From an uncultured Gemmatimonadota bacterium (GTDB lineage: Bacteria; JAAXHH01), in NCBI GenBank assembly GCA_951812955.1, contig OX638340.1, positions 1,344,001-1,408,000 of the forward strand: a stretch of DNA of 64,000 nucleotides. Direction: 5' to 3'. A model generated the notes under the pieces. The model was not told the origin of the DNA. It saw nothing but the letters and a program-made list of their open reading frames with translations, and did not search any database. Every line of letters starts with the position of its first letter. The first letter of the stretch is position 1. The position numbers and the translations under genes are program-made. Of this stretch, positions 8,391 to 61,311 are shown piece after piece.

Positions 8391-8588
8391 ATGAATGTCA
8401 GTAAAGAAGAAAACACCAGACTCACTCCTTCGACAGTCAAACTCAAGCGGTTAATAGGGACCTCGCCTGCTCCTCGAATGTTGACGCCATACGAAATCAA
8501 GTTGCTGCGGCAAGCCGCGAAGGAAGTGGCCGAAGTTACGGAAGAAGTCCTCGCTGAGAAAGACAGTAGTAAGGAAGAAGGATGCTGA
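8391..8588 (+). CDS. small hypothetical protein (65 aa) overlapping the cas3 start
   Basis: ORF with about 48% GC, helical Lys/Glu-rich C-terminus. Its stop overlaps the cas3 ATG by 7 nt, suggesting translational coupling. No recognisable motif. Confidence 0.3.
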   Translation: MNVSKEENTRLTPSTVKLKRLIGTSPAPRMLTPYEIKLLRQAAKEVAEVTEEVLAEKDSSKEEGC

Positions 8589-11045
8589 CCTTCGAGCGGT
8601 TTTTCTCCACAGCGTTCGGTAAAGACGTTTGTCCTTTCGCCTATCAACAGGCTCTCGCAAAGCAGGCCTGGCCAGACGCGCTCATTGCTCCGACCGGCCT
8701 TGGCAAGACCGCCGCGGTGGTGCTTGGTTGGGCCTGGAAACACGCCGTAGTCGAATCTCCAACTCCACGTCGCCTCGTTTATTGCCTGCCTATGCGCACG
8801 CTCGTCGAGCAAACCGAGCGGAATGTCAGAGAATGGCTGCGTGAACTGGGCAAAGCAAATACGGACTGGAAATCACGCCTTCCGGACCCTGAAGCCGGAG
8901 TCCATGTCCTCATGGGCGGCATGGATGAGCCGCGCTGGTTTGAAACACCTGAACGACCGGCCATCCTGATCGGAACTCAAGATATGCTGATCAGCCGCGC
9001 CCTGATGCGGGGGTACGCCATGAGCCGCTTCCGCTGGCCAGTGGACTTCGCCTTGTTGCACAACGACGCGCAGTGGGTTTTTGACGAAGTGCAATTGATG
9101 GGAGCAGGCCTGGCGACCTCTACACAACTCGAAGGTTTTCGTCGTACGTTCGGAACGGAGATCCCTTCGTGCAGTCTCTGGGTGTCAGCGACCCTTCACC
9201 CGGACTGGCTACATACGGTTGATTTCCAGCAACGTCCTACGGTGTGGCGTGTTCCATGTGATTTCCCCGACGATATACATTCATCGCAAGTCCTCAAACT
9301 GATTAACGCGTGTAAGCCAATTCAGCCGTCGTCCGTCGCGCCGATGAGTGCCAAGAAGGCCGATCTGAACGCATACGCGACAGCGTTGGCGAAGGAAACC
9401 CGGAGTCTGCACCAAGAAAACAATACGACGCTTGTGGTACTCAATACAGTCGCCCGCGCCCAAGCCGTGCATAAAGCACTTCAGAAGATGGATGTTGCGC
9501 CTGCTTGCCTTGCTCTCATCCACTCGCGGTTTCGGCCTAAAGATCGCACCCGGCAGATGGACAAGTTGCCGCAAACCGGGGAAACAAAAAAACTGATCGT
9601 AGTCGCGACGCAGGCGATTGAAGCAGGTATCGATCTATCAGCGGCGGTCCTGCTCACCGAACTCGCGCCTCCTTCGTCCCTTACCCAGCGGTTCGGTCGG
9701 GTAAATCGCTACGGTGAGTTGAACGATTCCGGTGGCGGGACGGTCCGCTGGATAGATATCATCGGAGGCGACCTCGGTGATTCGTTGGCGGCTCCGTATG
9801 AGATTAACGAACTCAAAATCGGGCGCGAGCGGATTGCCGCGTTAAAGGACGCTCGGCCCTCTAATCTCGTGCCGCCCGCATCAGACGACTGCGCCTATCG
9901 GGGTGTGATACGATCCAGGGATATGCTGGACCTATACGACACCGATCCGGATTTGACCGGCTTTGATGTCGATATCGCTCCTTACGTCCGCGATGCTGAA
10001 GATACCGATATTCGAGTTTTCTGGCGCGATTTCGACGTGCAGTCTGGACCAGAGGACCAGACTGCACCCATGCGGGACGAGCTTTGTGCGGTTCCGATTG
10101 GGCGCGCGCGTAACTGGCTTAGGGATGTCAGAAAGAAGGAAGGGCAGCGGGTATTTCGCATAGACCCGCAGGCACGAGCTAATGGGAAGGGTAGCGTTCC
10201 GACTTGGACCGCGTTCCGAGAGGAACCGTGGCCGGGTTTGGTGTTGATGGTTCATGCGAGTGCTGGGGGTTATGCACCGGACACGGGGTTTGATCAGGGT
10301 CTAAAAACAGCAGTCGAGCCTGTGAAGCTAGGAGAGGAACAGCAGACGGCAGACGAGTCGAACGACGGCGATTCCGACAGCGAGCAGAGCAGGTGCGTGG
10401 AACTGACGGATCATCTGGACCACGTGGCTTTTGAAGCCAGATACCTATGCGATGGCCTCGACGTTTGTGAAGCTTGGAAAGCCACAATCCTCCAGGCAGC
10501 GTACTGGCACGACCTCGGTAAAGCACACCCTGAGTTTCAGGCGCGAATGGTTGCAAGTAACACGGAGGCCGACCCACCACCAGAAGGGTTGCTAGCCAAG
10601 GCTCCGAAGTACGACCGCACGAAAGGACGTGCATATTTCCGGCACGAACTTGCGTCTGCACTAGCATTTCTCACACAAGCAGGCTGGGTACGCAAGGCCG
10701 ATCTTGTTGCGTACCTGATAGCCGCCCATCACGGCAAGGTACGCCTGAACTTGCGTCCCCTACCAGCCGAAAGTCGGGTAATGGGGGAGGATGGACGGCG
10801 TTTTGCTCGCGGCGTGTGGGAGGGAGACGAGATACCGTTGGTTAGTTTGGGCAATGGGGAAACATGGACAGGGGGGCCACTCGCACTATCCGTGATGGAG
10901 TTAGGCGAGCATCCGGAAACTGGGGCAAGTTGGACCGAGCGTACGCGAAATTTGCTTTCCCAGTACGGTCCTTTTCAGCTCGCTTGGTTGGAGGCACTTG
11001 TACGTATCGCCGACTGGCGGGCATCAGCAAAAGAAGAACGAGGTC

Positions 11046-11062
<17 letters not shown>
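8582..11062 (+). CDS. cas3: Cas3 helicase-nuclease, type I-G architecture (helicase N-terminal, HD C-terminal)
   Basis: Walker A APTGLGKT near the N-terminus and a DEVQ (DExx-type) box with helicase C-motifs. The HD-nuclease motif AAYWHDLGKAHPEFQ sits at about residue 640, i.e. C-terminal as in I-G/I-U Cas3. Confidence 0.85.
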
Positions 11063-14598
<3,536 letters not shown>

Positions 14599-14605
14599 GT
14601 CTCGA

Positions 14606-16240
14606 ATGTTTGCACTTACTTTCACCTTTCCTTTGGGCCGCTATCACGCAACGCCGTGGGGGCGCCATGTCAACGAAGCCGATGTCGCTTGGCCGCCAGA
14701 GCCTTGGCGCATTCTTCGTGCGCTCGTCGCTACCTACTGGCGCAAAGGCGACCGGGTACGCTGGTCCGAGGACACACTCGCCCGTCTAGTAGACGCGCTA
14801 GCCCAGGATGCGCCGATCTATCACTTGCCCCCAGGCGTGATCCACGCACATACCCGGCATTACATGCCCACACCTAAAATGACGCTCGTCTTCGACGCCT
14901 TTGCCCACTTGTCTAAAGACGAACAGATCGTAGCGGCTTGGCCAGAACTCGAATTGGACGTCGAACTATTTGATTTGGCGGCTGATCTCGCAGAGGGGCT
15001 CGGCTACCTGGGGCGTGCCGAGAGTTGGGTTGAATGCGGAACGATAACCGACTGGAACCAAGATGTGGCAAACTGCCATCCTGTGGGCCAAAATGGGACC
15101 GCCCACGGGGAGATAGTGCGAGTGCTCACACCGCTCAGTGCTCAGGATTATATGGTGGAGCGTACGCGCCTGTTGGAGGAAGTTGACGATGCAGAGCGAG
15201 ACCGCACCGCTGCTTCCGGCAAGAGACCTCCTACCCCCAGAGCCCTTGAAAGGGCACGCAACAAAGCGTTCGGGCCGACCCTTCCTGATCGTCTGGTCGA
15301 AGCCTTGATGCTCGATACGGCCGATTACCAAAAATACCGTTGGAACCGACCGCCAGCCTCACGTGAGATTGTTTATACACGTCCGCCTCTGTCCCCTGTT
15401 CCTCGCCGTGCCCGGATTCGTGCAACAGTTGATGACCGCAGACAATTCACCGTAGCGCGCTTTCTTTTGGCCGGCCGTCCCCGACCTCGTATTGAGGATG
15501 CGGTCAAGATCGGTGAACTCATGCGGCTTGCCGCGCTTTCCAAGTTTGGTTGGGAGGACAAGAGACCCAGAGCACCGTCGGTGATATCAGGCCGGGGTTC
15601 TGATGGCCGACCATTACGCAACGGCCAGCATTCGCATGCGTTTTGGTTGCCCGAGGACGCCGATGGCGATGGCTGGATTGACCATATAACGGTTTACGCA
15701 GAGGAAGGTTTCGATGTTTCAGTGCGCGAGAAGCTGGATCGACTGACCCGTTTGTGGGTCGGTGGAGACGATTCCGGTGGAGAGGAAGGAGATAAAGAGA
15801 CCGGTCGCCAAGAGTGGCGACTGGCCTTGGAGGGCTTTGGCCGCCCGGAGGACTTTGCGGACACATCAAGGCTATTTAGCTGTTCAGATGAATGGGAAAG
15901 TGTAACACCTTTTTTGGCGTCTGGTCACTTAAAAAAGGCCGGGTATGAAGGCGAGATACATCGGCTTTGGAAGCGCAGACGAGTCACATCTGGTTCGCAT
16001 ACTGAGCCTGTACAGGTCGAAATCTTGCGCCACATCGAGATTCACGGTACTCTCCGTAGAGCAGTGCATTTTCATCGATTCCGTTCACGGGGACGAGAGA
16101 AGCAACCCGACGCGCAAGGGGCCTTGCTGCGCCTGAGTTTTAACGAGCCAGTTACAGGACCCTTAGCTCTTGGATATGCCTGCCATTTTGGTCTTGGAAT
16201 GTTCGCACGCCCAATCCTAGACGCAAAATCGGAACAATGA
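14606..16240 (+). CDS. cas5: Cas5-Cas6 fusion (Csb2/Cas5u-Cas6u family)
   Basis: 544 aa starting MFALTFTFPLGRYHATPW, the Cas5-like N-terminus of Csb2-family proteins. C-terminal half Gly-rich. Correct position for the I-G order. Confidence 0.65.
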   Translation: MFALTFTFPLGRYHATPWGRHVNEADVAWPPEPWRILRALVATYWRKGDRVRWSEDTLARLVDALAQDAPIYHLPPGVIHAHTRHYMPTPKMTLVFDAFAHLSKDEQIVAAWPELELDVELFDLAADLAEGLGYLGRAESWVECGTITDWNQDVANCHPVGQNGTAHGEIVRVLTPLSAQDYMVERTRLLEEVDDAERDRTAASGKRPPTPRALERARNKAFGPTLPDRLVEALMLDTADYQKYRWNRPPASREIVYTRPPLSPVPRRARIRATVDDRRQFTVARFLLAGRPRPRIEDAVKIGELMRLAALSKFGWEDKRPRAPSVISGRGSDGRPLRNGQHSHAFWLPEDADGDGWIDHITVYAEEGFDVSVREKLDRLTRLWVGGDDSGGEEGDKETGRQEWRLALEGFGRPEDFADTSRLFSCSDEWESVTPFLASGHLKKAGYEGEIHRLWKRRRVTSGSHTEPVQVEILRHIEIHGTLRRAVHFHRFRSRGREKQPDAQGALLRLSFNEPVTGPLALGYACHFGLGMFARPILDAKSEQ

Positions 16241-16444
16241 AACGCAGCATTTACAATGACACCTCAGTCATTGGAGTTTGTTATAGAGTTGTTTCAAGGA
16301 AGCTATAACTGTCGATCGATTCTTACATAATCTCGATGTTGTTCATACAGCCTTAAGTCGAGACGTATCCCTGGACCCACGACAGCTAAAACGTACGAAC
16401 ATTTTGCAGAACGAGTAGCCGCGAATACTTCAGCGACTCACCAC

Positions 16445-18157
16445 ATGAACCACATCCACCAACTCACGCTACCAATACCTCCGCCCCCAGTCGACGCGAA
16501 TACGCCATTGGTCCCAGCGCGCATGGTCAACGAATGGGTCTATTGCCCGCGACTGGCCTACCTGGAATGGGTTGAAGGAGAGTGGGCGGAGACGGGAGAC
16601 ACCGCCGAGGGACGGCGTACACACGTAAGGGTCGACGAAGGTGGCGGCCGTCTGCCCGGACCGGAAGAACTGGATGATGAGATGGCCCGCGCCCGGTCCG
16701 TCACGCTTTCGTCGGATCGTCTCGGCGTAATCGCCAAGATAGACGTCGTGGAAGCCGAAGAAGGAATCGTCACGCCCGTGGATTTCAAGAAAGGCAAGCG
16801 TCCCCATGTCGCCACTGGCGCCTACGAGCCCGAACGCGTCCAGATCTGCACGCAGGCCATGATCCTGGAGGACAATGGTTACAGAGTGGAGCGCGGTATG
16901 CTCTGGTACGCCGGGTCGCGTGAGCGCGTCCCGGTGATGCTTGACGATGAACTTCGATCCCTGACCCTGGCGGCAATCAGAGAATTGCGCGTCGCCGCGG
17001 CTGATGGCCGTCGGCCACCGCCTCTGGAAAACAGCCCGAAGTGCCCCCGCTGTGCCCTGGCGGGGATCTGTCTGCCCGACGAAACCAACCTGTTCCGCAA
17101 AGGGACTGCACCACGCCCGCTGAACCCATCGGATGATCCGGCCCTGCCGCTCTACGTACAGGAACCGGGGGCGCGACTGCGAAAGAGCGGTGAGCGCTTG
17201 GTGGTGGAAATCAAGGAAGAATCCGTAGAGGTACCCATAATCGACGTTTCCCAGGTCGCTCTGTTCGGCCCCGTCTCGGTGACCACACCGGCTCTGCACG
17301 CGCTGATGAACGCGGAGATTCCGGTATCGTGGTTTTCCACGGGAGGCTGGTTCCTCGGCCATACAGTAGGAACAGGGCATGGAAACGTGGCCGTTCGCGA
17401 AGCGCAATACCGCGTAGCCTTCGATAAAGGCGCTCGCCTTGCCTTCGCGCGCGATCTCGTGGCGGCTAAGGCGCGTAACGCCCGTACGATGTTGCGTCGC
17501 AACTGGCGCGTCAATATGGACGCGGAAATCAGGGATGAAGCCCTAGTCCGGCTCAGGGGAGTCGTGCGCCGCATCTCCCGCGCCACGGACGAAAGCCAAC
17601 TGCTGGGCCTGGAAGGCGAGGCCGCCGCAGTGTATTTCAACTGCTTCGAGCACATGCTTGCTAAGGATCTGGACGGCGGCGCGACGGGGTTCTCCTTCAC
17701 CAAGCGCAATCGGCGGCCTCCCACGGATCCGGTGAACGCGCTCCTGTCGCTGGCCTACGCTTTGTTGACGCGGGTATTCACTACGACCATCTCGGCGACG
17801 GGGCTCGACCCCTACATGGGCCTCTACCACCATACGCGCCACGGGCGCCCGGCGCTGTCCCTCGATCTAATGGAACCGTTCAGACCTATTGTCGCCGACT
17901 CCTGCGTTATTCAAGCCATCAACAACGGCGAAGTAAAGCTGGCCGATTTCGTGTTCAACGGGGCTGCTTGTTCGCTGAAGCCTGCTGGTCGCAAGTCCTT
18001 CATCGCCGCGTTCGAGCGGCGCATGGAGCAGGAGACCACACATCCGCTTTTCGGCTATCGCGTTTCCATGCGGCGACTTATCGAGGTACAGTCCCGATTG
18101 CTCGCCCGGCATTTTCAGGGAGAGATCGTCTCTTACCCTCATTATCTTCCCCGGTAG
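16445..18157 (+). CDS. cas4: Cas4-Cas1 fusion
   Basis: N-terminal Cas4 RecB-like domain with Cys cluster (YCPRLAYLEW ... CPRCALAGICLP). C-terminal Cas1 (GLDPYMGLYHHTRHGRPALSLDLMEPFRPIVAD). An alternative start at M26 (16520) is possible. Confidence 0.85.
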   Translation: MNHIHQLTLPIPPPPVDANTPLVPARMVNEWVYCPRLAYLEWVEGEWAETGDTAEGRRTHVRVDEGGGRLPGPEELDDEMARARSVTLSSDRLGVIAKIDVVEAEEGIVTPVDFKKGKRPHVATGAYEPERVQICTQAMILEDNGYRVERGMLWYAGSRERVPVMLDDELRSLTLAAIRELRVAAADGRRPPPLENSPKCPRCALAGICLPDETNLFRKGTAPRPLNPSDDPALPLYVQEPGARLRKSGERLVVEIKEESVEVPIIDVSQVALFGPVSVTTPALHALMNAEIPVSWFSTGGWFLGHTVGTGHGNVAVREAQYRVAFDKGARLAFARDLVAAKARNARTMLRRNWRVNMDAEIRDEALVRLRGVVRRISRATDESQLLGLEGEAAAVYFNCFEHMLAKDLDGGATGFSFTKRNRRPPTDPVNALLSLAYALLTRVFTTTISATGLDPYMGLYHHTRHGRPALSLDLMEPFRPIVADSCVIQAINNGEVKLADFVFNGAACSLKPAGRKSFIAAFERRMEQETTHPLFGYRVSMRRLIEVQSRLLARHFQGEIVSYPHYLPR

Positions 18158-18665: not shown

Positions 18666-21271
18666 ATTTCCGGGGCTGCGCAGCCCCGGCCTCATTGAAG
18701 CGCCGCCATATCGATCCGGATAGAAGGTTGTCCGTTCGATTTCCGGGGCTGCGCAGCCCCGGCCTCATTGAAGCACCATATGCCGGCGCGGTGATTGGGT
18801 ATTTGCGGCACGATTTCCGGGGCTGCGCAGCCCCGGCCTCATTGAAGCATCCGTCATCATAAAACCCCCGTAAATGGCCATAGGGATTTCCGGGGCTGCG
18901 CAGCCCCGGCCTCATTGAAGCCGTCGTCGCGATGGCGGTGTTCGGTGGCAACCTGTGATTTCCGGGGCTGCGCAGCCCCGGCCTCATTGAAGCCACCAGA
19001 ATACCCATGCGGCCGATAACGAGGTGCTGCTTATTTCCGGGGCTGCGCAGCCCCGGCCTCATTGAAGCCGATCCTTCCGCGAAGTGTCCGGCCTGCACCG
19101 CTCCATTTCCGGGGCTGCGCAGCCCCGGCCTCATTGAAGCATGAGTTGACGCTCCGAGATACCCAGCAGCGTCGCGAGATTTCCGGGGCTGCGCAGCCCC
19201 GGCCTCATTGAAGCCGGAAGATGTTGCTCCCCTGGCCGTCGGTGAAGAAGTTATTTCCGGGGCTGCGCAGCCCCGGCCTCATTGAAGCCGGAAGATGTTG
19301 CTCCCCTGGCCGTCGGTGAAGAAGTTATTTCCGGGGCTGCGCAGCCCCGGCCTCATTGAAGCGAGAAGATCTCCCCGGATAACGTGGACGACCCCACCGG
19401 CATTTCCGGGGCTGCGCAGCCCCGGCCTCATTGAAGCCGGTTGGCCTCCGGGTCCGGCTCGGTTTCGTGCGGTTGATTTCCGGGGCTGCGCAGCCCCGGC
19501 CTCATTGAAGCTTGGAAGCCATGATGGCCTTGGTGCCCAGGGCGAGCGCCATTTCCGGGGCTGCGCAGCCCCGGCCTCATTGAAGCTAGGCCTCCTCGCT
19601 GGCGAATCCCATCTTGTACCACTATTTCCGGGGCTGCGCAGCCCCGGCCTCATTGAAGCTCGTACACGTGGGCGGTGGTCAGCACCACCTTGGAACCGGA
19701 TTTCCGGGGCTGCGCAGCCCCGGCCTCATTGAAGCGTCGGTTTCGTCCTCGGTGTCGCGGTGACGACGCTCTATTTCCGGGGCTGCGCAGCCCCGGCCTC
19801 ATTGAAGCATCAAACACACCCTTCAAGCGTAAACATAGGCCCTGGATTTCCGGGGCTGCGCAGCCCCGGCCTCATTGAAGCCCATCAGTGTGGTCGACTG
19901 CTGCCTGCGTGTGCTGGAGAAATTTCCGGGGCTGCGCAGCCCCGGCCTCATTGAAGCCCATCAGTGTGGTCGACTGCTGCCTGCGTGTGCTGGAGAAATT
20001 TCCGGGGCTGCGCAGCCCCGGCCTCATTGAAGCATGCACATCTCGAAGTCACAGGACCAGACACAGGTGACGATTTCCGGGGCTGCGCAGCCCCGGCCTC
20101 ATTGAAGCCACGGAAGGCAGCCAGGGTCGCACCGCTGGCACCCAGATTTCCGGGGCTGCGCAGCCCCGGCCTCATTGAAGCCAAGCAATCGAACGCAAGC
20201 ACAAGCGGACGCTCGACCATTTCCGGGGCTGCGCAGCCCCGGCCTCATTGAAGCTAAGGGTATTGTCCAGGACGATGACCTGAATGAATATATTTCCGGG
20301 GCTGCGCAGCCCCGGCCTCATTGAAGCCTGTGCAAAACGCGCGGTACTTGAAATTGGCCCGTGTCATTTCCGGGGCTGCGCAGCCCCGGCCTCATTGAAG
20401 CGTGATTGATCAATTTCGAGATTAACCGTTATTTCCTCCATTTCCGGGGCTGCGCAGCCCCGGCCTCATTGAAGCAGGAACACGTGGAAGAGGTAGGAGC
20501 AGACGCGAAACCATTTCCGGGGCTGCGCAGCCCCGGCCTCATTGAAGCGAAGCTCCTGTTGAGTCTGTGAACGACTGGACGGGTTAATTTCCGGGGCTGC
20601 GCAGCCCCGGCCTCATTGAAGCGATGCAATCAGAAACCTCCTTCATCGTCGCATCCTGATATTTCCGGGGCTGCGCAGCCCCGGCCTCATTGAAGCGATT
20701 CATCGTTGGCGTTGTCGTCCACCTCCTCGGCGAGGTATTTCCGGGGCTGCGCAGCCCCGGCCTCATTGAAGCCAAGTTGACAGACATAGGAATCCAGCCT
20801 TACGCGTCCACATTTCCGGGGCTGCGCAGCCCCGGCCTCATTGAAGCTCTGAAAAAGACCTGTTGCTCCACCCCATCGAGGACGTATTTCCGGGGCTGCG
20901 CAGCCCCGGCCTCATTGAAGCGCCTTGTCGCGGATAGCCCTTGCCTGCTCCTCCAAAGCCATTTCCGGGGCTGCGCAGCCCCGGCCTCATTGAAGCCTCC
21001 AACACCAGCAACAGCACGGCAGGGTCCCTGGGCATTTCCGGGCTGCGCAGCCCCGGCCTCATTGAAGCGAATCTCCCTCCAGCGGGTTGCAGTCCTTCAG
21101 GTCCTGGGTTTCCGGGGCCGCACGGCCCCGGCCTCATTGAAGCGAGATCCCCCCGGACCCTGGTAAGGCGTCGGCGGGCAGTGTTTCCGGGGCCGCTCGG
21201 CCCCGGCCTCATTGAAGCTCGGATCCTAACTACGACCTGTTCATTATCAATTGCGTTTCCGGGCTGCGCGG
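18666..21271 (+). CRISPR. CRISPR array: 35 repeats of 36 bp (ATTTCCGGGGCTGCGCAGCCCCGGCCTCATTGAAGC) plus a partial terminal repeat; 34 spacers of 36-40 bp
   Basis: Repeats start at 18666, 18739, 18813 ... 21183 with 73-76 bp periodicity. The repeat contains the palindrome GGGGCTGCGCAGCCCC and the ATTGAAGC 3' handle typical of I-C/I-G-like repeats. Distal repeats 33-35 are mutated (GGGCTGCG, GCCGCACGGC, GCCGCTCGGC), with a repeat fragment at 21255-21271. Confidence 0.95.
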
Positions 21272-41979: not shown

Positions 41980-42837
41980 ATGTGCATGCATAGTACCCTG
42001 ATCGATGTCCATACGTTACACCGCCATTATCAGGACCCAGACTGGTGCGTGATCGACGCCCGATTCTCCCTGGCCGACGCGGGTCAGGGCGCACGGGAGT
42101 ACGGTGAAGGCCACGTGCCCGGTGCCGTGTACGCCCACCTGGACGATGACCTGTCCGGTCCCATCATTCGCGGTGAAACGGGCCGTCATCCGCTGCCGTC
42201 CGTGGAACGGGCCGCTACAGTCTTCTCGCGATTGGGGATCGACGAAAGCGTGCAGGTCGCGGTCTATGACGGCGCGGGAGGTTCCGTGGCCGCCAGGGTC
42301 TGGTGGATGCTACGCTGGCTGGGCCACGACGCCGTCGCCGTAGTGGACGGCGGTTGGCCGGCCTGGACTGGCGCGGGACTGCCGGTTACGCAGGATGTAC
42401 CTGAAGTGACTCCGCGCACCTTCGTGCCCAGCGTCCGCGCGCACCTGGCTACCGACGCGAACGGCGTCGATCGGCACCGGAACGATGCAGCCTGGGTGGT
42501 CCTGGATGCCCGCACTCCGGAGCGTTTCCGAGGCGAGACGGAGCCCATAGACCCCGTGGCCGGCCACATTCCCGGTGCACGGTGCGCGACATTCGATGCG
42601 AATCTGGGAGAAGACGGATGCTTTAGGGCGCCTGAGGAACTGCGGCAGAGATTCGAGGATTTGCTCGCCGGCGTCCCCGTGGAGCGCGCCGTAAACTACT
42701 GTGGCTCAGGGGTATCGGCCTGCCACAATCTCCTCGCCATCGCTCACGCGGGCCTGGGTGACGCCGTGCTGTACCCGGGGTCATGGAGCGAATGGATAAC
42801 GGATGAAAATCGGCCGATCGGGACGGGGGATGGGTGA
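41980..42837 (+). CDS. sseA: thiosulfate/3-mercaptopyruvate sulfurtransferase (tandem rhodanese)
   Basis: Two rhodanese domains, active-site Cys loop CGSGVSACHN, YGEGHVPGAVYAHLD. Confidence 0.8.
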   Translation: MCMHSTLIDVHTLHRHYQDPDWCVIDARFSLADAGQGAREYGEGHVPGAVYAHLDDDLSGPIIRGETGRHPLPSVERAATVFSRLGIDESVQVAVYDGAGGSVAARVWWMLRWLGHDAVAVVDGGWPAWTGAGLPVTQDVPEVTPRTFVPSVRAHLATDANGVDRHRNDAAWVVLDARTPERFRGETEPIDPVAGHIPGARCATFDANLGEDGCFRAPEELRQRFEDLLAGVPVERAVNYCGSGVSACHNLLAIAHAGLGDAVLYPGSWSEWITDENRPIGTGDG

Positions 42838-43011
42838 AGAAAGAATCCACAGTCAATTGAAAATATAACTCAATGATATTATTCCACTTAAGTTACTTCC
42901 TTCGACCAAGGCATATTTAAACAAAATTATGCTGGCTTCGAGATGATATGCATTCACCAAAGATCCTTCCATTGTACTAATGTTTCTTAAACGTCAGCCT
43001 TGTTAACCTAT

Positions 43012-44721
43012 TTATCGTTGAGTCAGTTGATTAGCACCCTGAGGTCGGACAATTGTTACCAAGTTACGAGCTCTGGTAATCCCAACTCTGAGAAGCCGAC
43101 GGCTACGATTGTAAGGAGGATGTTCTCGCTTTTCGTCAAAAAAACGTGATTCAAACTTGCCTTCCACTATAACGACGCCGTCGAATTCTTTGCCCTTACA
43201 CTTGTGCAAATTCATAAGCACGCATCCTTGTGGGTCACGCTCCAGCGCAAGCAGTAGTTCATGATTTAATACCTTCCGTATTGTAGCGGTTGCTTCTATG
43301 TAACTTCCAGACTCTAACCACAATTCCGATAGTGCTTTAGAAAGTACATCTGTAGCTTGAAACAAACGCACCATACTTGCTGACCGGAATACATCATTTA
43401 TCACTTTGTGTACCCTTAGAATATCTCTTGCACTACGCCAATCGGAAACTGGGTCACCGCGATATTCAATACCGTTGGATGCAATTTCTACCATATTTCT
43501 TGCAGCCTGAATACGCGGGAGGCGGCCCATTATTACCGCCTCTGATGCCTCGGCGAATTGCCGAGTTAGTTTCGAAGCAACTTTCGAATGTTGCTCGGCG
43601 TTTTTTAAGCGAAAATACCTTGAAAGGCAGGCAAGTGTATCTGAGACGGTTCTTGCATCAAATTCAGTTCGCCACTCCAATATGGATCCTACGATTTCAG
43701 CCGAGGAGGCCGATAGATTGGCATCCCATACCACATCGTGAGGTATTGGTTTTATCTCACGCTTTTTATAAACATGAGTATCTTGAAGTATCGCTGAAAG
43801 TTGCGCGACATGCCGATTGCTTTTAGTTAAGACTGCGACACACGGATTGTGAATTCCCTTCTTACGTAACAAAGCGATGGTAAAGTGAACTGCTGCATGA
43901 AAAACTGAGTCAAATCCATTCGGCCAGTAGTATTGAACTATCTTAACATTGCTAGTTTTGGGTAGCTCTTCATTGTTTAAGACAGCGTCTGCGAATGATA
44001 GGATTCCGGCTTGTGGACTTCTGTGATTGACCTTACCAAGATCGAACTCAGCGAAGCCAAGTGTAACCCTAGCTGAGTTTATCCTTTGGAAGCTTACAGT
44101 TGGTCGATAGTCAAATATGCACTGTTCCGGATCGGCTAGACATACTACATCAGTTACACTTGCCAATGATTTAATAAGTCGCCACTGGTCTTCGTCGGTA
44201 TCCTGAAACTCATCAACAATGATTAGCGGAAATCGATCGCCATACATGGATCTTACTGCTTCGCTTTCCGCGACAATCATTGCAGCTCCCTTTGCAAATT
44301 GATCAAAACAGTAGATTCCTTCTACTTGCGCAAGACGAACCTGTTCAGCCTCCCAATCTCCTTCAAAAAAAGACTTCTTCAATCGCTCACCTTTGGGAGT
44401 TAAAATACGAGTAGGGAATCCACCCAAAAGCCGCCCATGTCCTCGCAATATTTCACGACAAAAGAGATGGTAAGTCTTTACCTGAATAAGTCGACGTTCT
44501 TCATTCTTCAATAGGTCCTGACTCCTGCCTAGTATCTGGCGTATCGCTGCTCGTGAGAAGCTTAAGAACAGTATACCTTGACCGGGTTCAAGTCCCTTAC
44601 AGCGAGCTTTGGCTTTCAACAGTGCAATAGTTGTCTTGCCAGATCCAGGGCCACCCTTAACGAGCATGTGGCCTGTTTGATTGATAATAGATTGGTGGAT
44701 TTCTTTTAAATCTAGATTCAT
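43012..44721 (-). CDS. gajB: UvrD-like SF1 helicase, Gabija GajB-like
   Basis: Walker A GGPGSGKTT and Walker B/UvrD motif IIVDEFQDTDEDQW. 4-bp overlap with the upstream OLD-family gene. AT-rich. Confidence 0.7.
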   Translation of the reverse strand: MNLDLKEIHQSIINQTGHMLVKGGPGSGKTTIALLKAKARCKGLEPGQGILFLSFSRAAIRQILGRSQDLLKNEERRLIQVKTYHLFCREILRGHGRLLGGFPTRILTPKGERLKKSFFEGDWEAEQVRLAQVEGIYCFDQFAKGAAMIVAESEAVRSMYGDRFPLIIVDEFQDTDEDQWRLIKSLASVTDVVCLADPEQCIFDYRPTVSFQRINSARVTLGFAEFDLGKVNHRSPQAGILSFADAVLNNEELPKTSNVKIVQYYWPNGFDSVFHAAVHFTIALLRKKGIHNPCVAVLTKSNRHVAQLSAILQDTHVYKKREIKPIPHDVVWDANLSASSAEIVGSILEWRTEFDARTVSDTLACLSRYFRLKNAEQHSKVASKLTRQFAEASEAVIMGRLPRIQAARNMVEIASNGIEYRGDPVSDWRSARDILRVHKVINDVFRSASMVRLFQATDVLSKALSELWLESGSYIEATATIRKVLNHELLLALERDPQGCVLMNLHKCKGKEFDGVVIVEGKFESRFFDEKREHPPYNRSRRLLRVGITRARNLVTIVRPQGANQLTQR

Positions 44722-46604
44722 GAATTATCGCCATTATCAGACGCTGATGGCTGTTGGTTATCGCCATTACAATCGGCACCTTCTTCTGATGATTTAACAG
44801 GAGGATCCAATACCAAGTTTAATGCTTCCAATACTGTTCTTATGAAATCCGGTAGCATTTCTCTTTCTTTGCAGTGCTCAATCAAGTTTGCGGCATATCC
44901 ATGTGCTTCACCTTTTCGAGCCTTTAGAACTCTTTTACACAAATCTTTCACATTGTCGTCGGACATTTCCGGACTGTATTGCCGTTCCTGTGGGTAATCC
45001 GATCGATGCCTTGCCTCATTGAGAAAGCTTCTTTGAACTTCAACTGATAACTCGGTCACTAGGAGTTCTTCAATTGAATAGAAGGGGGATTCCCAACTCT
45101 CATCGTAGGATTCCATATTTCGAACATCGTCTACCGACCAAGTGTCGTTATTGGGCTTGTCATAAACTGCAAAGGCAGGTTTCCCAAGTGCTGCGAAAGC
45201 AGGTCCATATCTCGGTATGTCCCCATAGCCTCCAGCATTGAATAAAACTATACCTGCGAGATCGGGATGAGTATAGTCTTGAGTGGGTGACGTATTCTCA
45301 ATAACAGTTGCTGCTGCAGAGAAAACCGAGGCTTCGGTAGATCCTTCGACTACGAGTACTGCTCGACTCAGGACTGCTTCGGCAAACTGTCTTCTATTGG
45401 TTTTGTATGTCTTCTCTTTGATTTCTCCGATATTAACAGGATTTCCCTTTAGAATAGTCTGTTCACGCTCAAGTATAACAATATCAGCTAGCTCGAACTG
45501 CTCTATCACATAAGGAGAGTGTGAGGTTACAATTGCTTGTCCCATCTCCTGAAGCACGAATTTCGTAACCCGACGTTGTGTATGAGGAGGTAACGCTATT
45601 TCTGGTTCTTCCATCGCGAAAATAACAGAATGCCTATCCTTTAATTCAGCAATAAAAGTTAGTAGTGCGAACACAAGCACGTTTATTGTGCCAGTTCCAA
45701 GTTTTTGGAATGGAACTAAATGATCACTTTCCTTCGAAGCTAAAAAGAACTTTACCACATTTCTCAAGTCGTTTCGTGTAAGGTCCGATGCAAAAAAGCC
45801 CGTTGCGTTTTTATCATCAGCAAGTTGGACAAACCGTGCGATCCTGTCACGAACTTCAGATTGAATTTCATTAAGTTGTTGAATGTCGCCAATTGCAGGT
45901 TGAAGATTACGTAAACGATATAATGTTTCTCCCCACATCTGACTAAGACCGGTGCCACCCAATCGGATTATCGTATCGAGCAGTGATCCCCTCTGGAGGC
46001 TTAGTGCTCTGGAACCAGTACGAAGTGCCCGTAAGAACAAGAACCCACAGAAGCGCTTGTGACTCCAAGTAAAGCGTGTCCGACCACTTCCCAGGACATT
46101 CTGTTCTTCAATTTCCTGCTCATCATCATCGATCACTTCAGGGACAGGGTATGCAAAAAACGAATCACCTTCAAAATCGTCTCTTTCTAATTCGTAACGT
46201 CCAAAGAACACAACAGGTAGCGCCCAGACAACTTCAGGCCGATCCGTTACCAACGGACCTTCATCTCCTTCATCAGCATAACATTGTTCTTTTACATTCC
46301 AATGTCGCAGATGGTTCTCGCCAAACCGACGAATTGCCTCGTCTGTAAGATCAACAAGTATTGCTTCGATCTCAATTACAACAGCCTCACCGTCATTAGT
46401 GAGATAGCTGTCTCGATGAAAATCGTGTTCGTCAACTACTGGCCTGCGATTTAGTCTTTCTGGTCCGAGTACTAAGTCAAGTGCCTCGCATACAGTCGAT
46501 TTCCCGCTATTGTTACCACCTACAAGTAGAACGTTATCGCCAAAGTGGATTTCACCATGTTTTATACCGCGGAAGTTTGCCATACGAAGTCTTACTACAC
46601 GCAT
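44718..46604 (-). CDS. gajA: OLD-family ATP-dependent endonuclease (ABC ATPase + TOPRIM), Gabija GajA-like
   Basis: N-terminal MRVVRLRMANFRG...LVGGNNSGKST Walker A, C-terminal TOPRIM (VLVVEGSTE ... AVYDKPNND). Start set at ATG 46604 with a GGAGGA RBS; the ORF track's 46733 start would overlap the GT2 gene. Confidence 0.7.
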   Translation of the reverse strand: MRVVRLRMANFRGIKHGEIHFGDNVLLVGGNNSGKSTVCEALDLVLGPERLNRRPVVDEHDFHRDSYLTNDGEAVVIEIEAILVDLTDEAIRRFGENHLRHWNVKEQCYADEGDEGPLVTDRPEVVWALPVVFFGRYELERDDFEGDSFFAYPVPEVIDDDEQEIEEQNVLGSGRTRFTWSHKRFCGFLFLRALRTGSRALSLQRGSLLDTIIRLGGTGLSQMWGETLYRLRNLQPAIGDIQQLNEIQSEVRDRIARFVQLADDKNATGFFASDLTRNDLRNVVKFFLASKESDHLVPFQKLGTGTINVLVFALLTFIAELKDRHSVIFAMEEPEIALPPHTQRRVTKFVLQEMGQAIVTSHSPYVIEQFELADIVILEREQTILKGNPVNIGEIKEKTYKTNRRQFAEAVLSRAVLVVEGSTEASVFSAAATVIENTSPTQDYTHPDLAGIVLFNAGGYGDIPRYGPAFAALGKPAFAVYDKPNNDTWSVDDVRNMESYDESWESPFYSIEELLVTELSVEVQRSFLNEARHRSDYPQERQYSPEMSDDNVKDLCKRVLKARKGEAHGYAANLIEHCKEREMLPDFIRTVLEALNLVLDPPVKSSEEGADCNGDNQQPSASDNGDNS

Positions 46605-46686
46605 GCTATAGTCCTCCAAATGCAGTTTAATTTGCTTCGATATGAATACATCTTGGTTGTATTTGTAAGAATAGAAACTACCTACA

Positions 46687-47505
46687 TTATACGACATGCT
46701 CAGGATTTGACGGTTTTCTACGCCCAAACGCATACCTGAAAGTCACCCAGAGTATCTTCACTCCCGCCCGGACCGCCCCGGACAGCGTTCCCGTGATCTT
46801 GGAAACCCCGACCCGCTTCCGGTACCGCACCGGGACGTCGAGGGTGCGGTACTTCCTTTGTGCTGCCTTGATCTGCATTTCGACGGTCCAGCCAAAGTTT
46901 TGATCCGCCATTTCGAGCTCGAGCAGCCTGTCGTAGCGTATGGCCCGGAACGGTCCCAGATCGGTATATCGATGTCCGTAGAGCCAACGGATGATCCTGG
47001 GAACGAGGACGTTGCCTATCACGGCCTGGACCGGCATGGCGCCCGGCGCGCGGTGTCCCAGCATCCGTGACCCGATCACCATGTCGTAACCCGCTTCCAC
47101 GACCGGGCGCACCAGGTCTGCCAAGTCTTCTGGGTAATCGCTGTAATCGCCGTCCAGGAACACGATGACGTCCGGATCGAACCGGGCGGCCTCGGCCATG
47201 CCGCGCAGGCAGGCGGCCCCGTACCCGCGCCGGGGTTCCTTCACGACGACCGCGCCACCCTCCGCGGCCACTGCCCCGGTCCGGTCCGTCGAACCGTTGT
47301 CCACGACGATTACGGCCGTGGCCATCCCCTCCGGAATGTGTGCCAGGACCAGTCCGATCGAATCCTCTTCGTTCAGGACCGGAATGATGACCACGATGGT
47401 CTGTTTGTCCGCTGATCTTGCCATCTCGCTGTGTCGACCCCTGTTTGCCATCGGAGGAGGACCAGATACCCTGCGGTCGCCGGCAGGTTCCGCCGACCCC
47501 TCCAT
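46687..47505 (-). CDS. family 2 glycosyltransferase (Dpm1-like)
   Basis: TIVVIIPVLNEEDSI...VVDNGSTDRT motif. A start at M28 (47424) is more likely than 47505. Confidence 0.75.
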   Translation of the reverse strand: MEGSAEPAGDRRVSGPPPMANRGRHSEMARSADKQTIVVIIPVLNEEDSIGLVLAHIPEGMATAVIVVDNGSTDRTGAVAAEGGAVVVKEPRRGYGAACLRGMAEAARFDPDVIVFLDGDYSDYPEDLADLVRPVVEAGYDMVIGSRMLGHRAPGAMPVQAVIGNVLVPRIIRWLYGHRYTDLGPFRAIRYDRLLELEMADQNFGWTVEMQIKAAQRKYRTLDVPVRYRKRVGVSKITGTLSGAVRAGVKILWVTFRYAFGRRKPSNPEHVV

Positions 47506-47731: not shown

Positions 47732-50700
47732 ATGCGTCTTTCCCATCTTGAAATGATCGGGTTCAAGTCCTTCTCCACCCGGCTGAAGGTGAAGTTCAGC
47801 GACGGCATCACGGCCGTGGTCGGCCCGAACGGCTGCGGGAAGTCAAATATCGTCGACGCCATACGCTGGGCGCTCGGGGAACACCGCGCGACTTCGCTGC
47901 GGGGCGACCGAATGGAAGACATCATCTTCAACGGGACGGCCGCCCGGAAACCGCTCGGTATGGCGGAGGTATCGCTGACGATCGACAACAGCGAGCAGAA
48001 GCTGCCCGTCGAATACAGCGAAGTCACGATCACGCGCCGTTATTTCAGATCCGGCGCGAGCGAGTACCAGATCAACAAGGTGCCCTGCCGCCTCAAGGAC
48101 ATCACCAATCTCCTGCTGGACACGGGCATGGGCGCCCACGCCTACTCGATCATCGAGCAGGGCATGGTGGAATCAGTGGTAAACGGCAGTCCATTGGAGC
48201 GGCGCCAGCTCATCGAGGAAGCTGCCGGCATCAACAAGTACAAGACCCGGCGGCGCCTGGCGCAGCGGAAGCTGGAAGGGACCGAGCACGACCTGGTACG
48301 TATAGCCGACCTCCTGGATGAAGTCGAACGCAGCGTGAGTTCGCTGCGGCGGCAGGTTCGCAAGTACGAACGGTACGACCGGCTGATGCAACAGATGAAG
48401 GACGTGGAGATCGTGGTCGCTTGTCACGCGTACCAGGATCTACGCGGACAGACCGAACCCGTCCGTGCCCGGATAAAGGAGTATGCGGACCGGAAAGAAG
48501 CCATTCAGACACGCATACGTACAGCCGAAGCCGAGGTCGAGAAGAATAAGGCCGTCCAACTGGAAAAGGCAGAAATACTGCAGAACCGGCAGGACGCGGT
48601 GAACCGGATCGACGACCAGATCAGGGCACTGGAAGAGGAACTCCTGGTTAGCAAGGAACGCCGGACCGGCCTGGAGCAGCGGGCCAGTTCCGCGTCGGGG
48701 GAGGCGGACCAGGCGGAGACCGAGCAGGAACGCATCCGGTCCCAGCTGGCACGGATCGTCGACGACCGGAAGACACTGGACACGGCGCTGGAACAGGCAC
48801 GCTCCGCGTTCGCGGAACGGGACGAAGCGTCCAGGACCTATGCCGGCCGGATCGCCGCACAGAAAGAGTCGACCCAGGCACTGCGGAACCGCAGCATGGC
48901 GTTGATTCAGAAGCACTCGGGCGAACTGGCGGAAATCAGTTCGCTCGAAGCCCGCGAAGCGTCCCATCGCAAAAGAAACGCCGATGTGGCAACCGCGCGA
49001 AAGAAACTCGCCGAAGAACTGGCATCGAAAACGGCGGCCTTCGAATCCGCGCAAAAGGAACTGCGCGGCGTCAGGCAGGTCGTGGAAGAAAACACGGCGC
49101 TGAATACGAACCTGACAGAGTCCGCCCAGGACGCGCGGGAATGCATCGAGTCGGCCCGTGACGAGTTGACCAGCCTCGAAACAACCATAACGACGGCCGA
49201 AAAGGAACACGCACTGCTCGATCGCATGCACCGGCAGTACGAAGGATACGGCCAGGGAGTCCGGACGCTGTTGACCAACGGAGCGGACATCGAAGGACTC
49301 CGCGGCGTGCTCGCGGATGGGATCACGATCGACAAGGCATACGAAAAGGTGATCGCGGCCTACCTGGACGACATGCTTCAGTACGTCGTGGCCGGACGCA
49401 CCGAAGACGCCGAGGCGGGCCTCCGCTATATTCGGGAACAGGAGGCCGGACGGGTTTCCTTCATTCTGCTGGACCGAATGAAGTCCCGCCCCGTGCCCGC
49501 GGACCTGCCGTTCGAGGATGACGGCATCATCGGCCGCGCGAGCACGATGGTCACCTCCGACAAGGCGCTGGATCCGGCGGTGACCCACCTGCTCTCCCGG
49601 GTCGTGCTCGTGAAGGACGTCGAAACGGCCTTTCGCCTGTCCCCGTTGTTCGATACCGACCAGGACTGGAGACTGTTGACTGCCGAGGGCGAAGTCGTGG
49701 ATCCGGCCGGATTGCTGACCGGTGGATCGTCCGAGACGAGCGAATCGGACCTGCTTAGTCGTGCGGAGCGGATCGCGGAGATCGAAGCGGAACTGGTAGA
49801 AAACCGCGCGGAACGCGAGAAGATCGCCGGTGAATTGGAAGGACTGGAGGCGGAACTGGCCTCGTTGACGGATCGGCAGGCTTCCGTCGAACAGGTACTC
49901 GGCGAATCCCGGCGCAAGTTGATGGAAACGGAGTCCCGGGACCGGCAGCTGGATTTCGAGCGCGCCAGGATGGCGGAACAGGACGAAGAACTCGCCCGGG
50001 AAGCGGATTCCCTGGCGGAGGAGGCGAAGGCCGCGGCCGTGGAGCGCGAGGAACGCAAAAAAGCGCTGGACTCCCTCGCGCACGACCGGACAGCGGCCGA
50101 AGAGGAAGAGCGGGGGAATCAGGATACCCTGGACGAGATGGAAGCGGAACGCCAGCGCCTGGCCGATGCGGCCAACGACGCCAGGGTCGCCCTCGTCTCC
50201 ATGGAAAGCCGGAGCAACGAACTGAGCACCACCGACGAATTCCTTACGCAGGAAAACGAGCGGCTGGCCACTCTCCTCGCGCAACGAAAAACCGAAGCGG
50301 TGGAGGCCGGCAGCCAATCGAAGGAACTGAAGAAGACCCAGGAAAGAAACGAGAAACAGCTGGAGGCGCACTATGCGTCCAGGCGGAAACGGGAGGTGGA
50401 CCGCAACGCCGTTCTCGAAGAGCACCAGAACCTGCAGGAAGAAGAACGTCAGATACAGCAGAACCTCGGCGAGAACCGGAACGCGCTGACCCAGGTGCAG
50501 GAACAGGTACACCAGGCGGAACTGGAAGACGCCGAACTGTACATGAAGAGCAACGAGATCCGGCGGCAGTTGATGGAGAAACACGGCACCGATCCCGAGG
50601 GCATGGACAAACTGCCGCAGATCGAGGAACTGGACGAATACACGCCCGACGCCGCACAGACCCTGCGGATGGGGCTCCAGCGCAAGGTGGACGAACTGGG

Positions 50701-51361
50701 TCCCATCAACATGGCCGCGGTGGAAGAGTACCGGGCGGGCAAGGAGCGGCTCGACTTCCTCCAGCAGCAGCAGAATGACCTCATTGAGGCCAAAGACAAC
50801 CTGGAGAAGACCATCGTCAAGATGAACAAGGCCGCCCGTTCCCGATTCATGACCACCTTCGAAGAGGTCCGGACCAATTTCATGACCACGTTCCAGGCGC
50901 TTTTTGAAGGCGGTGAGGCAGACCTAATGCTCGAAGAAGGGGACCCCCTCGAAACGGGTATAGAAATCATGGCGCGGCCCGAAGGAAAGCGGCTGCAGAG
51001 CCTGGCCCTGCTATCCGGCGGCGAGACGGCCCTCACGGCCATCGCCCTGCTCTTCGCTATCTATCTCGTGAAGCCCAGTCCCTTCTGCGTGTTCGACGAA
51101 GTGGACGCGCCGCTGGACGACGCAAACGTGAAACGATTCGCCGGCGCCCTGCGCCAGTTCACCAGCAACACACAGTTCCTGGTGGTCACCCACAACAAGC
51201 GGACCATGGAAGCCGCCGATTACCTCTACGGCATAACCATGGAAGAACCCGGCCTGTCCAAGATGGTCTCCGTGCGCCTCGAGGATGCCGAATCTGAAGT
51301 GCTGGAACCCGCGGCCACTCCGGGCGAACAGGCAAACGGCGCCGGTACGGTCGGGGTATAG
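47732..51361 (+). CDS. smc: chromosome segregation protein SMC
   Basis: N-terminal MRLSHLEMIGFKSF...VVGPNGCGKSN Walker A, long coiled coils, hinge, C-terminal LSGGE signature and Walker B (CVFDEVDAPLDDAN). 1209 aa. Confidence 0.95.
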   Translation: MRLSHLEMIGFKSFSTRLKVKFSDGITAVVGPNGCGKSNIVDAIRWALGEHRATSLRGDRMEDIIFNGTAARKPLGMAEVSLTIDNSEQKLPVEYSEVTITRRYFRSGASEYQINKVPCRLKDITNLLLDTGMGAHAYSIIEQGMVESVVNGSPLERRQLIEEAAGINKYKTRRRLAQRKLEGTEHDLVRIADLLDEVERSVSSLRRQVRKYERYDRLMQQMKDVEIVVACHAYQDLRGQTEPVRARIKEYADRKEAIQTRIRTAEAEVEKNKAVQLEKAEILQNRQDAVNRIDDQIRALEEELLVSKERRTGLEQRASSASGEADQAETEQERIRSQLARIVDDRKTLDTALEQARSAFAERDEASRTYAGRIAAQKESTQALRNRSMALIQKHSGELAEISSLEAREASHRKRNADVATARKKLAEELASKTAAFESAQKELRGVRQVVEENTALNTNLTESAQDARECIESARDELTSLETTITTAEKEHALLDRMHRQYEGYGQGVRTLLTNGADIEGLRGVLADGITIDKAYEKVIAAYLDDMLQYVVAGRTEDAEAGLRYIREQEAGRVSFILLDRMKSRPVPADLPFEDDGIIGRASTMVTSDKALDPAVTHLLSRVVLVKDVETAFRLSPLFDTDQDWRLLTAEGEVVDPAGLLTGGSSETSESDLLSRAERIAEIEAELVENRAEREKIAGELEGLEAELASLTDRQASVEQVLGESRRKLMETESRDRQLDFERARMAEQDEELAREADSLAEEAKAAAVEREERKKALDSLAHDRTAAEEEERGNQDTLDEMEAERQRLADAANDARVALVSMESRSNELSTTDEFLTQENERLATLLAQRKTEAVEAGSQSKELKKTQERNEKQLEAHYASRRKREVDRNAVLEEHQNLQEEERQIQQNLGENRNALTQVQEQVHQAELEDAELYMKSNEIRRQLMEKHGTDPEGMDKLPQIEELDEYTPDAAQTLRMGLQRKVDELGPINMAAVEEYRAGKERLDFLQQQQNDLIEAKDNLEKTIVKMNKAARSRFMTTFEEVRTNFMTTFQALFEGGEADLMLEEGDPLETGIEIMARPEGKRLQSLALLSGGETALTAIALLFAIYLVKPSPFCVFDEVDAPLDDANVKRFAGALRQFTSNTQFLVVTHNKRTMEAADYLYGITMEEPGLSKMVSVRLEDAESEVLEPAATPGEQANGAGTVGV

Positions 51362-60864: not shown

Positions 60865-61237
60865 CGTCCAAGCCGACCGTAAGCCGAGTTCTGTACCTTC
60901 GCGGTGAAGGTGGCGATCATCTATCTGGGACGGCTGTCGCCAGCCGCCTCGTGCGACCTAACCCGAGAGTCTCCGGTTTCCCGGCGGTCGAGACGGGCCG
61001 TCTCTCCTCTCCTATTCGGTCTTGCACCGGATGGGGTTTGTCCTGCCGGACCGGTTACCCGGACCGCGGTGAGCTCTTACCTCGCCTTTTCACCTTTGCC
61101 TCCCCGAAGGGATCGGCCGTGTGTTTTCTGTGACACTTTCCGTGGCATCACTGCCCCCTGCCGTTAGCAGGCATCCCGCCCTGTGGTGCTCGGACTTTCC
61201 TCGTCCGCGCGATGGCGAACGCGATCGCCTGGACGAC
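60865..61237 (-). ncRNA. rnpB: RNase P RNA (bacterial type A)
   Basis: Minus-strand sequence contains GAGGAAAGTCCGAGC (P4 5' strand), GGTGAAAAGGCGAGGTAAGAGCTCACCGCGG, ACAGAACTCGGCTTACGGTC (P4 3' strand), all collinear with E. coli M1 RNA. Ends estimated from P1 pairing. Confidence 0.85.
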
Positions 61238-61311
61238 TTGTGACGTTTTACATCCGTTAATATACTACACTACTCGGCCAGGTTCAACCCCGTTGGTTAC
61301 GGAATCGCGCG

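Follow-up and report, generated by a model that had tools for sequence, protein, structure and literature searches.

What does a block of AT-rich DNA of about 3.9 kb encode, and how did it come to lie between two core genes? The question is raised by a locus on contig OX638340.1 of an uncultured Gemmatimonadota bacterium, where such a block separates an sseA-like gene from a family-2 glycosyltransferase (GT2) gene. We examined the locus within a 64-kb stretch of the contig, referred to here as the window. Our analysis indicates that the island is, in all probability, a complete two-gene Gabija system, comprising a class 2 OLD nuclease (GajA) and a UvrD-like helicase (GajB) encoded by one minus-strand operon, at a variable and integrase-free site between sseA and GT2; its function is predicted from sequence, structural modelling and analogy with characterized systems. 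Over 15% of sequenced genomes carry Gabija (PMC10781630).

Identity of the two island genes

The island consists of exactly two long open reading frames (ORFs), gajA and gajB, both on the minus strand, with the start codon of gajB overlapping the stop codon of gajA by 4 bp (ATGA). An initial annotation of this DNA, made from the letters alone, had described a pair of 628 and 569 aa with such an overlap, and its placement of the two ORFs was confirmed, as were all four of the motifs that it quoted (Walker A and TOPRIM in the first protein, GGPGSGKTT and VDEFQDTD in the second). The mechanical ORF of gajA extends to 46733; we placed the start at the ATG at 46604, where homologues begin with the same MRV.

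The PADLOC profile for GajA, PDLC00086, matched the first protein with an E-value of 3.4e-221 (734 bits) over residues 1–613, corresponding to profile positions 1–589 of 600, and the GajB profile PDLC00104 matched the second with an E-value of 1.1e-183 (610 bits) over residues 4–564, corresponding to profile positions 3–568 of 574. Adjacent GajA and GajB profile matches, which constitute the operational definition of Gabija in PADLOC, are thus present, and the class 2 OLD/Gabija assignment of the initial annotation holds at full length. The locus is a further member of the catalogued PDLC00086/PDLC00104 subfamily, structurally no different from it, with the window copy coming from an uncultured lineage. 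Pfam identified AAA_15, AAA_21 and OLD-like_TOPRIM (PF20469) in the first protein and UvrD-helicase (2.9e-27), UvrD_C and UvrD_C_2 in the second, and NCBIfam holds no equivalog for GajA or GajB.

When GajA was compared with solved structures by phmmer, the best match was the OLD protein of Thermus scotoductus (TsOLD; 6p74, 3e-9), and the GajA of Bacillus cereus was matched at 4.6e-6. Using an alignment of 26 sequences of the GajA family as the profile raised the B. cereus match to 3.7e-10; the same alignment was the source of all calls of invariant residues given below. The protein begins with an ABC-type ATPase and ends in a Toprim plus helical domain, with a middle region (193–326) between them. 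The family alignment was the basis of an AlphaFold2 model with a mean predicted local distance difference test (pLDDT) score of 70, in which the ATPase lobe and residues ~350–600 scored 80–95 and confidence was low in the middle region and the tail (601–628). A Foldseek search of the PDB with this model gave GajA chains as the best matches (8u7i_A and 8sm3_A, ~1.4e-17, template modelling [TM] score 0.45–0.59), followed by the 6p74 OLD protein and then the retron Eco8 OLD protein. Direct similarity to the solved structures is thus weak but in the expected direction, with GajA as the best match at the level of the fold.

The number of proteins retrieved by the GajA search at E ≤ 1e-10 exceeded 5000. 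Dozens of homologues with 55–60% identity, named OLD-family or ATP-dependent endonucleases, come from Acidobacterium, Afipia, Xanthobacter, Devosia, Inquilinus, Syntrophorhabdus and many metagenomes, and outside the clade to which the window belongs the nearest relative is at most 67% identical. An identical GajA protein is already deposited in NCBI/ENA. Homologues are mostly ~615 aa long. Residues 601–628 of the window protein (44718–44801) form an acidic low-complexity tail, …SSEEGADCNGDNQQPSASDNGDNS, which is predicted to be disordered (pLDDT ~30).

GajB resembles the SF1 helicases PcrA, UvrD and Rep (1e-11 to 1e-13 against the PDB) as well as the solved GajB 8jqb (9e-10). It carries a Walker A motif at residues 23–31 (GGPGSGKTT, with K29), the sequence VDEFQDTD at 169–176, which contains the DEFQD box (170–174), and a motif VI, VGITRAR, at 546–552.

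Active site of GajA

The ATPase motifs of GajA are intact. Both the Walker A motif GGNNSGKST (29–37, with K35) and the H-loop TSHSP (360–364) are invariant in the 26 homologues, and H362 in the latter aligns with H320 of the GajA of B. cereus VD045 (BcGajA), a residue that has been tied to nucleotide sensing (PMC8136825). E332 and E333 were also assigned to the ABC-type ATPase.

In the model, the Toprim domain has strands at 415–419, 452–456, 477–481 and 502–505. The Toprim motif VVEGSTE (418–424) provides E420, which stands directly after strand 415–419 and aligns with BcGajA E379, and E424, which corresponds by position to E404 of the class 2 protein BpOLD; both glutamates are invariant. D482, likewise invariant, stands directly after strand 477–481 and was placed at the first Asp of the DxD motif in two independent alignments, one by phmmer with TsOLD and the other by hhalign with B. 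cereus-type GajA fragments (...KTDND...). Searching with a B. cereus GajA fragment yielded partial proteins only, but these were sufficient for the DxD to be spanned by a profile alignment. Further along, E512, D536 and K564 are invariant. E512 and K564 are 52 residues apart and D536 and K564 28, compared with 54 for BpOLD E508/K562 and 30 for BcGajA D511/K541; E512 and K564 may mirror the BpOLD pair, the equivalence being drawn from spacing and predicted helices.

Composition and boundaries of the island

The GC content of 42838–46686 is 0.434, against 0.601 for the remainder of the window, so that the compositional shift seen by eye in the initial annotation is real. In sliding 500-bp windows, GC content falls to 0.42–0.46 over ~42750–46750 and is 0.60–0.68 on both sides. 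The island is the sole dip on the 1-kb scale, every other 1-kb block of the window having a GC content of at least 0.497. At third codon positions, gajA has a GC content (GC3) of 0.348 and gajB one of 0.368, compared with 0.73–0.82 in sseA, GT2, smc, guaA and a neighbouring gene with a Helicase_C_3 domain.

The boundaries of the foreign DNA became clear from relatives in which the site is empty (Table 1). The left edge given in the initial annotation stands; the right edge lies ~36 bp beyond the end assigned there (46686), at about 46722, since homology with the empty sites restarts at CCCAAACGCATACC (46723). As a consequence, the GT2 ORF terminates in 10 island-derived codons: the window protein ends in YAFGRRKPSNPEHVV, that is, YAFG followed by RRKPSNPEHVV and a stop, and the latter 10-residue, island-encoded tail stands where the native terminal K and stop codon were, the empty-site relatives ending in YAFGK. 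The end of GT2 differs again in the metagenome contig L001, where it reads YAFGS. The promoter of the operon presumably lies within the 5′ leader.

The nine neighbouring genes that we scanned are core genes, the surroundings of the locus including guaA, smc, coaE, bamD and a miaB-like gene, and the arrangement of GT2 and smc is syntenic in relatives. There was no integrase among these nine genes, no tRNA anywhere in the 64-kb window, and no att-like pair in the island flanks, where a repeat search gave short direct and inverted matches at chance level; the initial annotation had likewise recognized neither an integrase nor flanking repeats. An integrase-mediated genomic island was rejected, there being no integrase in the island or the nine scanned neighbours, no tRNA target or flanking direct repeats, and no cargo other than gajA and gajB.

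Table 1. Features of the window, and cargo located after sseA in related contigs
Feature	Coordinates	Strand	Basis or content
Low-GC island, ~3.9 kb	42838..46722		Between sseA stop codon and penultimate GT2 codon; GC content and empty sites in relatives
gajA, OLD-family nuclease, 628 aa	44718..46604	-	PADLOC, Pfam, Foldseek
gajB, UvrD/PcrA/Rep-like SF1 helicase, 569 aa	43012..44721	-	PADLOC, Pfam, PDB matches
5′ operon leader, AT-rich	46605..46722	-	GGAGGA ribosome-binding site 7 nt before ATG
3′ spacer, AT-rich, 174 bp	42838..43011	-	gajB stop to sseA stop
Remodelled GT2 3′ end	46687..46722	-	10 codons and new stop from island DNA
sseA-like two-domain rhodanese gene (left flank)	41980..42837	+	Pfam Rhodanese 4e-26; core gene, hotspot anchor
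GT2 gene, native part (right flank)	46723..47505	-	Pfam Glycos_transf_2 9e-19
smc, beyond GT2	47732..51361	+	Pfam SMC_N 3.5e-69
Type I-G CRISPR-Cas locus	8582..18157 and 18738..21218		Cas3g (2.5e-224), Cas8g/Csx17 (5e-183), Cas7g/Csb1, Csb2, Cas4g/Cas1g fusion (2e-230); array after cas genes
Leucine-rich repeat protein, 1383 aa	21341..25492		XopAC/XopAE/XopL type III effector- and internalin-like (4e-41, below family cut-offs)
Fic-domain protein, 505 aa	4570..6087		Similar to 'mobile mystery protein B' and to Fic adenylyltransferases, weakly in each case
Kdo transferase–LpxK fusion, 827 aa	35810..38293		Glycos_transf_N (8e-53); LpxK tetraacyldisaccharide 4′-kinase (2e-89)
Bacterial RNase P RNA class A	60865..61240	-	Rfam RF00010, 274.8 bits
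Cargo in L004			SspB (4e-106), SspC (E = 0), SspD (1e-136), NsnA-like and HATPase proteins
Cargo in L014			SspC/SspD; PLD, MzaB-like, helicase trio
Cargo in L011			MkoA (9e-226), MkoB (3e-49) (Mokosh-like); PLD/MzaB-like/helicase trio
Cargo in L003 and L013			DndB-like proteins
Cargo in L009 and L018			622-aa Big_2 surface protein
Cargo in L005 and L012			Small unannotated ORFs
270-aa protein in related contigs	L083, 11823..12635; L084, 5908..6720; L005, 11643..12455		~83% identical between loci

Relatives and history of the island

Scanning species-representative genomes with the sseA protein yielded ~17 relatives at 82–89% identity, all of them metagenome-assembled genomes, labelled Candidatus Latescibacterota, Gemmatimonadetes, in one case Gammaproteobacteria, or simply "bacterium". 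In the contigs L003–L019, sseA is 83–89% identical to that of the window. Five relatives have an empty site (L006, L007, L010, L015 and, at a greater distance, L017), with sseA and GT2 either 17–67 bp apart or overlapping by 2 bp. By the compositional shift (GC and GC3) and by presence and absence among relatives (five empty sites), the island was acquired horizontally.

The nearest homologue of GajA (P0002, 85% identical) is encoded on L001, where GT2 and sseA likewise flank a Gabija pair with a GC content of 44–47%, and the two junctions coincide with those of the window. Between the window and L001, protein identity is 85% for GajA, 83% for GajB and 75–91% for flanking housekeeping proteins, and DNA identity is 80.6% for the island and ~81–88% for the flanks. 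In trees of smc and sseA, L001 groups with the empty-site contig L010 (94–96% identity of flanking DNA) and not with the window, which in the smc tree is nearer to L015, another contig with an empty site. A single insertion inherited by the window and L001 as sister lineages was therefore rejected. Gabija genes of 62–64% identity also occur near sseA, within the same variable region, in L083 (sseA 86% identical) and L084; in L083 they are flanked on one side by a helicase/HATPase/PLD trio accompanied by SspC/SspD-like genes (PAPS_reduct) and on the other by a conserved 270-aa protein. The pairing of gajA with gajB is kept in every relative examined (L001, L002, L083, L084 and L085).

These sequence comparisons are most simply read as showing that one fixed position has long been polymorphic for the presence or absence of a Gabija cassette, and that cassettes pass from lineage to lineage. 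Given that the junctions are identical and that no recombinase is present, homologous recombination in the conserved flanks would be the likeliest route of exchange; telling against this route, identity between the window and L001 is not raised beside the junctions. The initial annotation had proposed a recent horizontal acquisition. Its horizontal part is upheld by the foreign composition and the empty sites, but recency is not established, as divergence of the island matches that of the housekeeping flanks and the L001 cassette is still AT-rich, so that low GC content does not date the event. A cassette that has diverged by 19% in DNA, and that occupies these junctions in another lineage, retains its AT-richness, and low GC content is accordingly no proof of recent arrival.

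Cargo at the sseA–GT2 junction

Gabija is one of several kinds of cargo found after sseA. The other cargo in the relatives is mostly of low GC content and includes Ssp, Mokosh-like and DndB-like genes (Table 1); the Big_2 surface protein of L009 and L018 means that the cargo is not all defence. These data indicate that the sseA–GT2 junction is an integrase-free defence hotspot at which cargo is gained, lost and, by a route that would most likely be recombination, exchanged within an uncultured clade.

The trio of PLD, MzaB-like/HATPase and helicase genes recurs at the hotspot. In L083 and L084 the gene for the 270-aa protein directly follows gajB; in L005 it occurs independently of Gabija. The L005 copy matched nothing in Pfam or PADLOC, and for the copies in L083 and L084 no Pfam match is on record; the gene may be uncharacterized hotspot cargo or an accessory gene.

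Alternative identities

The partial resemblance of GajA to other defence ATPases could mean that it is a non-OLD ATPase of a different system, either AriA of PARIS or PtuA of Septu or a retron. Outside Gabija, PADLOC returned partial matches to Old (7e-24), AriA (3.4e-23) and mad3, NCBIfam returned PtuA (7e-8), and PtuA structures come further down among the Foldseek matches (~3e-9, TM 0.27), of which those to PtuA and Rad50 span the ATPase alone. The AriA match, however, reaches 81 bits against the 734 bits of the GajA profile and is limited to residues 271–367, corresponding to the last ~85 profile positions, while the PtuA match amounts to 31.8 bits, where the cut-off is 500, and covers residues 3–45 only. 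Moreover, a Toprim domain is fused within GajA, whereas AriA and PtuA have none, and the partner is a UvrD-like helicase, neither AriB (Toprim) nor PtuB (HNH), with no HNH gene in the island. PARIS and Septu were both rejected on these grounds, and the non-OLD ATPase, which the initial annotation had named, along with a missing GC shift, as an outcome that would refute it, is already refuted by profile coverage and domain architecture, with practically no chance left to it. It is also very improbable that GajA is a stand-alone class 1 or a retron-linked class 3 OLD nuclease beside an unrelated helicase: the best single-sequence match in the PDB is indeed a class 1 protein (TsOLD) and retron Eco8 OLD structures are among the fold matches, but a 4-bp overlap joins the helicase gene to that of the nuclease, both are kept together at 62–85% identity in five other contigs, the helicase matches the GajB profiles over its full length, and the island, 3′ spacer included, contains neither a reverse transcriptase ORF nor a match to any Rfam RNA family. 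That the pair is a host DNA-repair or housekeeping nuclease–helicase module, and not an anti-phage system, has a slim chance. OLD/UvrD pairs look like repair enzymes and the surroundings consist of core genes, yet the composition is foreign (GC3 0.35 against 0.75), several close relatives lack the pair and have the empty site intact, and recognized defence systems (Ssp and Mokosh-like) occupy the same site elsewhere.

Several observations weigh against the Gabija assignment itself. Similarity to the sole biochemically studied pair is low for both proteins (phmmer 4.6e-6 for GajA and 9e-10 for GajB, with 11–14% identity in the fold alignment of GajA). A scan with the sigma-70 consensus found no promoter match upstream of gajA, and a consensus scan found no terminator-like hairpin after gajB, counts in both cases being no higher than in shuffled sequence. 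In addition, the second Asp of the DxD motif is replaced, the window protein reading D482-K483-P484, so that the complete motif of BcGajA (D432/D434) and BpOLD (D455/D457) is absent; the second Asp is D434 in BcGajA (PMC10781630), and D457 has been stated to be conserved without exception among class 2 OLD proteins (PMC6755086). None of the 26 homologues has an acidic residue at position 484, where P, R, L or Q occurs, and all of them have K or R at position 483. Given that position 484 is non-acidic across the subfamily, the chemistry of the GajA nuclease may differ from that of BcGajA and BpOLD. An extreme form of this difference would be a Gabija-like system whose nuclease, with one DxD Asp, only nicks DNA or is inactive, and which acts mainly through NTP hydrolysis by GajB or as a sensor. 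The 26-sequence alignment and the double placement of D482 at the first Asp speak for it, as does the finding that partial loss of the metal site in BpOLD preserves nicking and abolishes processive cleavage (PMC6755086). We nevertheless consider it unlikely, as the single D457A mutant of BpOLD cleaved normally, with no discernible effect, D457 touching metal A only via water (PMC6755086), and E420, E424, D482, E512, D536 and K564 are all invariant, which argues for a selected, working active site. Since D457A is active and the contact of D457 is water-mediated, we take the missing Asp as a peculiarity of the subfamily rather than a sign of inactivity, and it does not exclude membership of Gabija as operationally defined.

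Other features of the window

A complete type I-G CRISPR-Cas locus, constituting a second defence system, lies ~22 kb from the Gabija genes in a region with a GC content of 0.53–0.58, somewhat under that of the core. Its array has 37-nt repeats (Rfam CRISPR-DR16), 17 of them above threshold, with a spacing of ~73 nt, and probably holds about 34 repeats. The array is followed by the gene for the 1383-aa leucine-rich repeat protein, which could be a eukaryote-like repeat protein; such proteins are often seen in host-associated bacteria. The Fic-domain protein is encoded towards the left of the window, where GC content is lower. A single ORF fuses a Kdo transferase domain with LpxK, and the RNase P RNA gene was found on the minus strand (Table 1).

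Discussion

The pair described here resembles the Gabija system of B. cereus VD045 (PDB 8sm3, 8u7i, 8jq9 and 8j4t) in gene order, the helicase gene following that of the nuclease, in the combination of an ABC-type ATPase and a Toprim domain in GajA, in the counterparts of Walker A K35, H320 and E379, and in the Walker A motif and DEXQD box of GajB, and BcGajA is its best structural match. It differs in belonging to another PADLOC sub-profile, in the residue following D482-K, in the acidic disordered tail (pLDDT <50), and in length: GajA has 628 residues against 578 (+50) and GajB 569 against 494–499 (+70–75), in agreement with the initial annotation, which had both proteins longer than the Bacillus prototypes. 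It is also like the class 2 proteins BpOLD and XccOLD (PMC6755086), in which an OLD ATPase is joined to a Toprim domain and a UvrD-like gene follows immediately downstream. With BpOLD it shares the E-x3-E motif (E420/E424 for E400/E404) and the first DxD Asp, whereas D457 has no counterpart in the window protein. The structures of the C-terminal regions of BpOLD and XccOLD were not retrieved by the sequence search.

For the mode of action we draw on the Gabija systems of B. cereus and Pseudomonas, between whose models the sequence of this locus does not discriminate. GajA and GajB assemble 4:4 (PMC10781630, PMC10822852), and the window proteins would by analogy form a hetero-octamer. The Toprim domain of GajA nicks or cleaves DNA and is inhibited by physiological nucleoside triphosphates (NTPs) sensed through the ATPase domain (PMC8136825), and GajB answers DNA ends with hydrolysis of (d)ATP and (d)GTP (bioRxiv 10.1101/2023.05.02.539174). 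The window GajA may likewise nick or cleave DNA under restraint by cellular NTPs on its ABC-type ATPase domain, with GajB acting on the resulting ends and hydrolysing (d)ATP/(d)GTP. The outcome could be nucleotide depletion and abortive infection (PMC8136825; bioRxiv 10.1101/2023.05.02.539174). It could instead follow the newer model for Pseudomonas Gabija, in which linear ends unoccupied by RecBCD are attacked and circularization of the phage genome is blocked (PMC12407980); here this would amount to a block on the circularization of linear phage DNA unprotected by RecBCD.

Integrase-free defence-island hotspots between core genes have been described in Pseudomonas, Vibrio and E. coli. The sseA–GT2 site is similar to them in its fixed core flanks, its variable, low-GC and mostly defence cargo, its empty alleles, and the lack of an integrase or att repeats at the junction. 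It differs in its occurrence in uncultured bacteria labelled Latescibacterota or Gemmatimonadota, and its mechanism of exchange is putative. A wider proposition, which we put forward tentatively and regard as rather doubtful in its entirety, combines both lines of evidence: that the GajA subfamily (PDLC00086, with more than 5000 homologues) works with one DxD Asp (D-[K/R]-x, the basic residue being invariant) and differs from the BcGajA and BpOLD models at the metal-A site and perhaps in the balance between nicking and cleavage, and that, at the sseA–GT2 junction of an uncultured lineage, recombination without an integrase drives a defence hotspot in which Gabija alleles have long been kept at ~44% GC against 60–65% in the host.

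Gabija is among the commonest anti-phage systems, so that one more copy adds little to annotation. The DxD Asp that is missing throughout the subfamily is a cheap and testable biochemical question, and the sseA–GT2 site, in a poorly known clade, could be mined for unannotated cargo.

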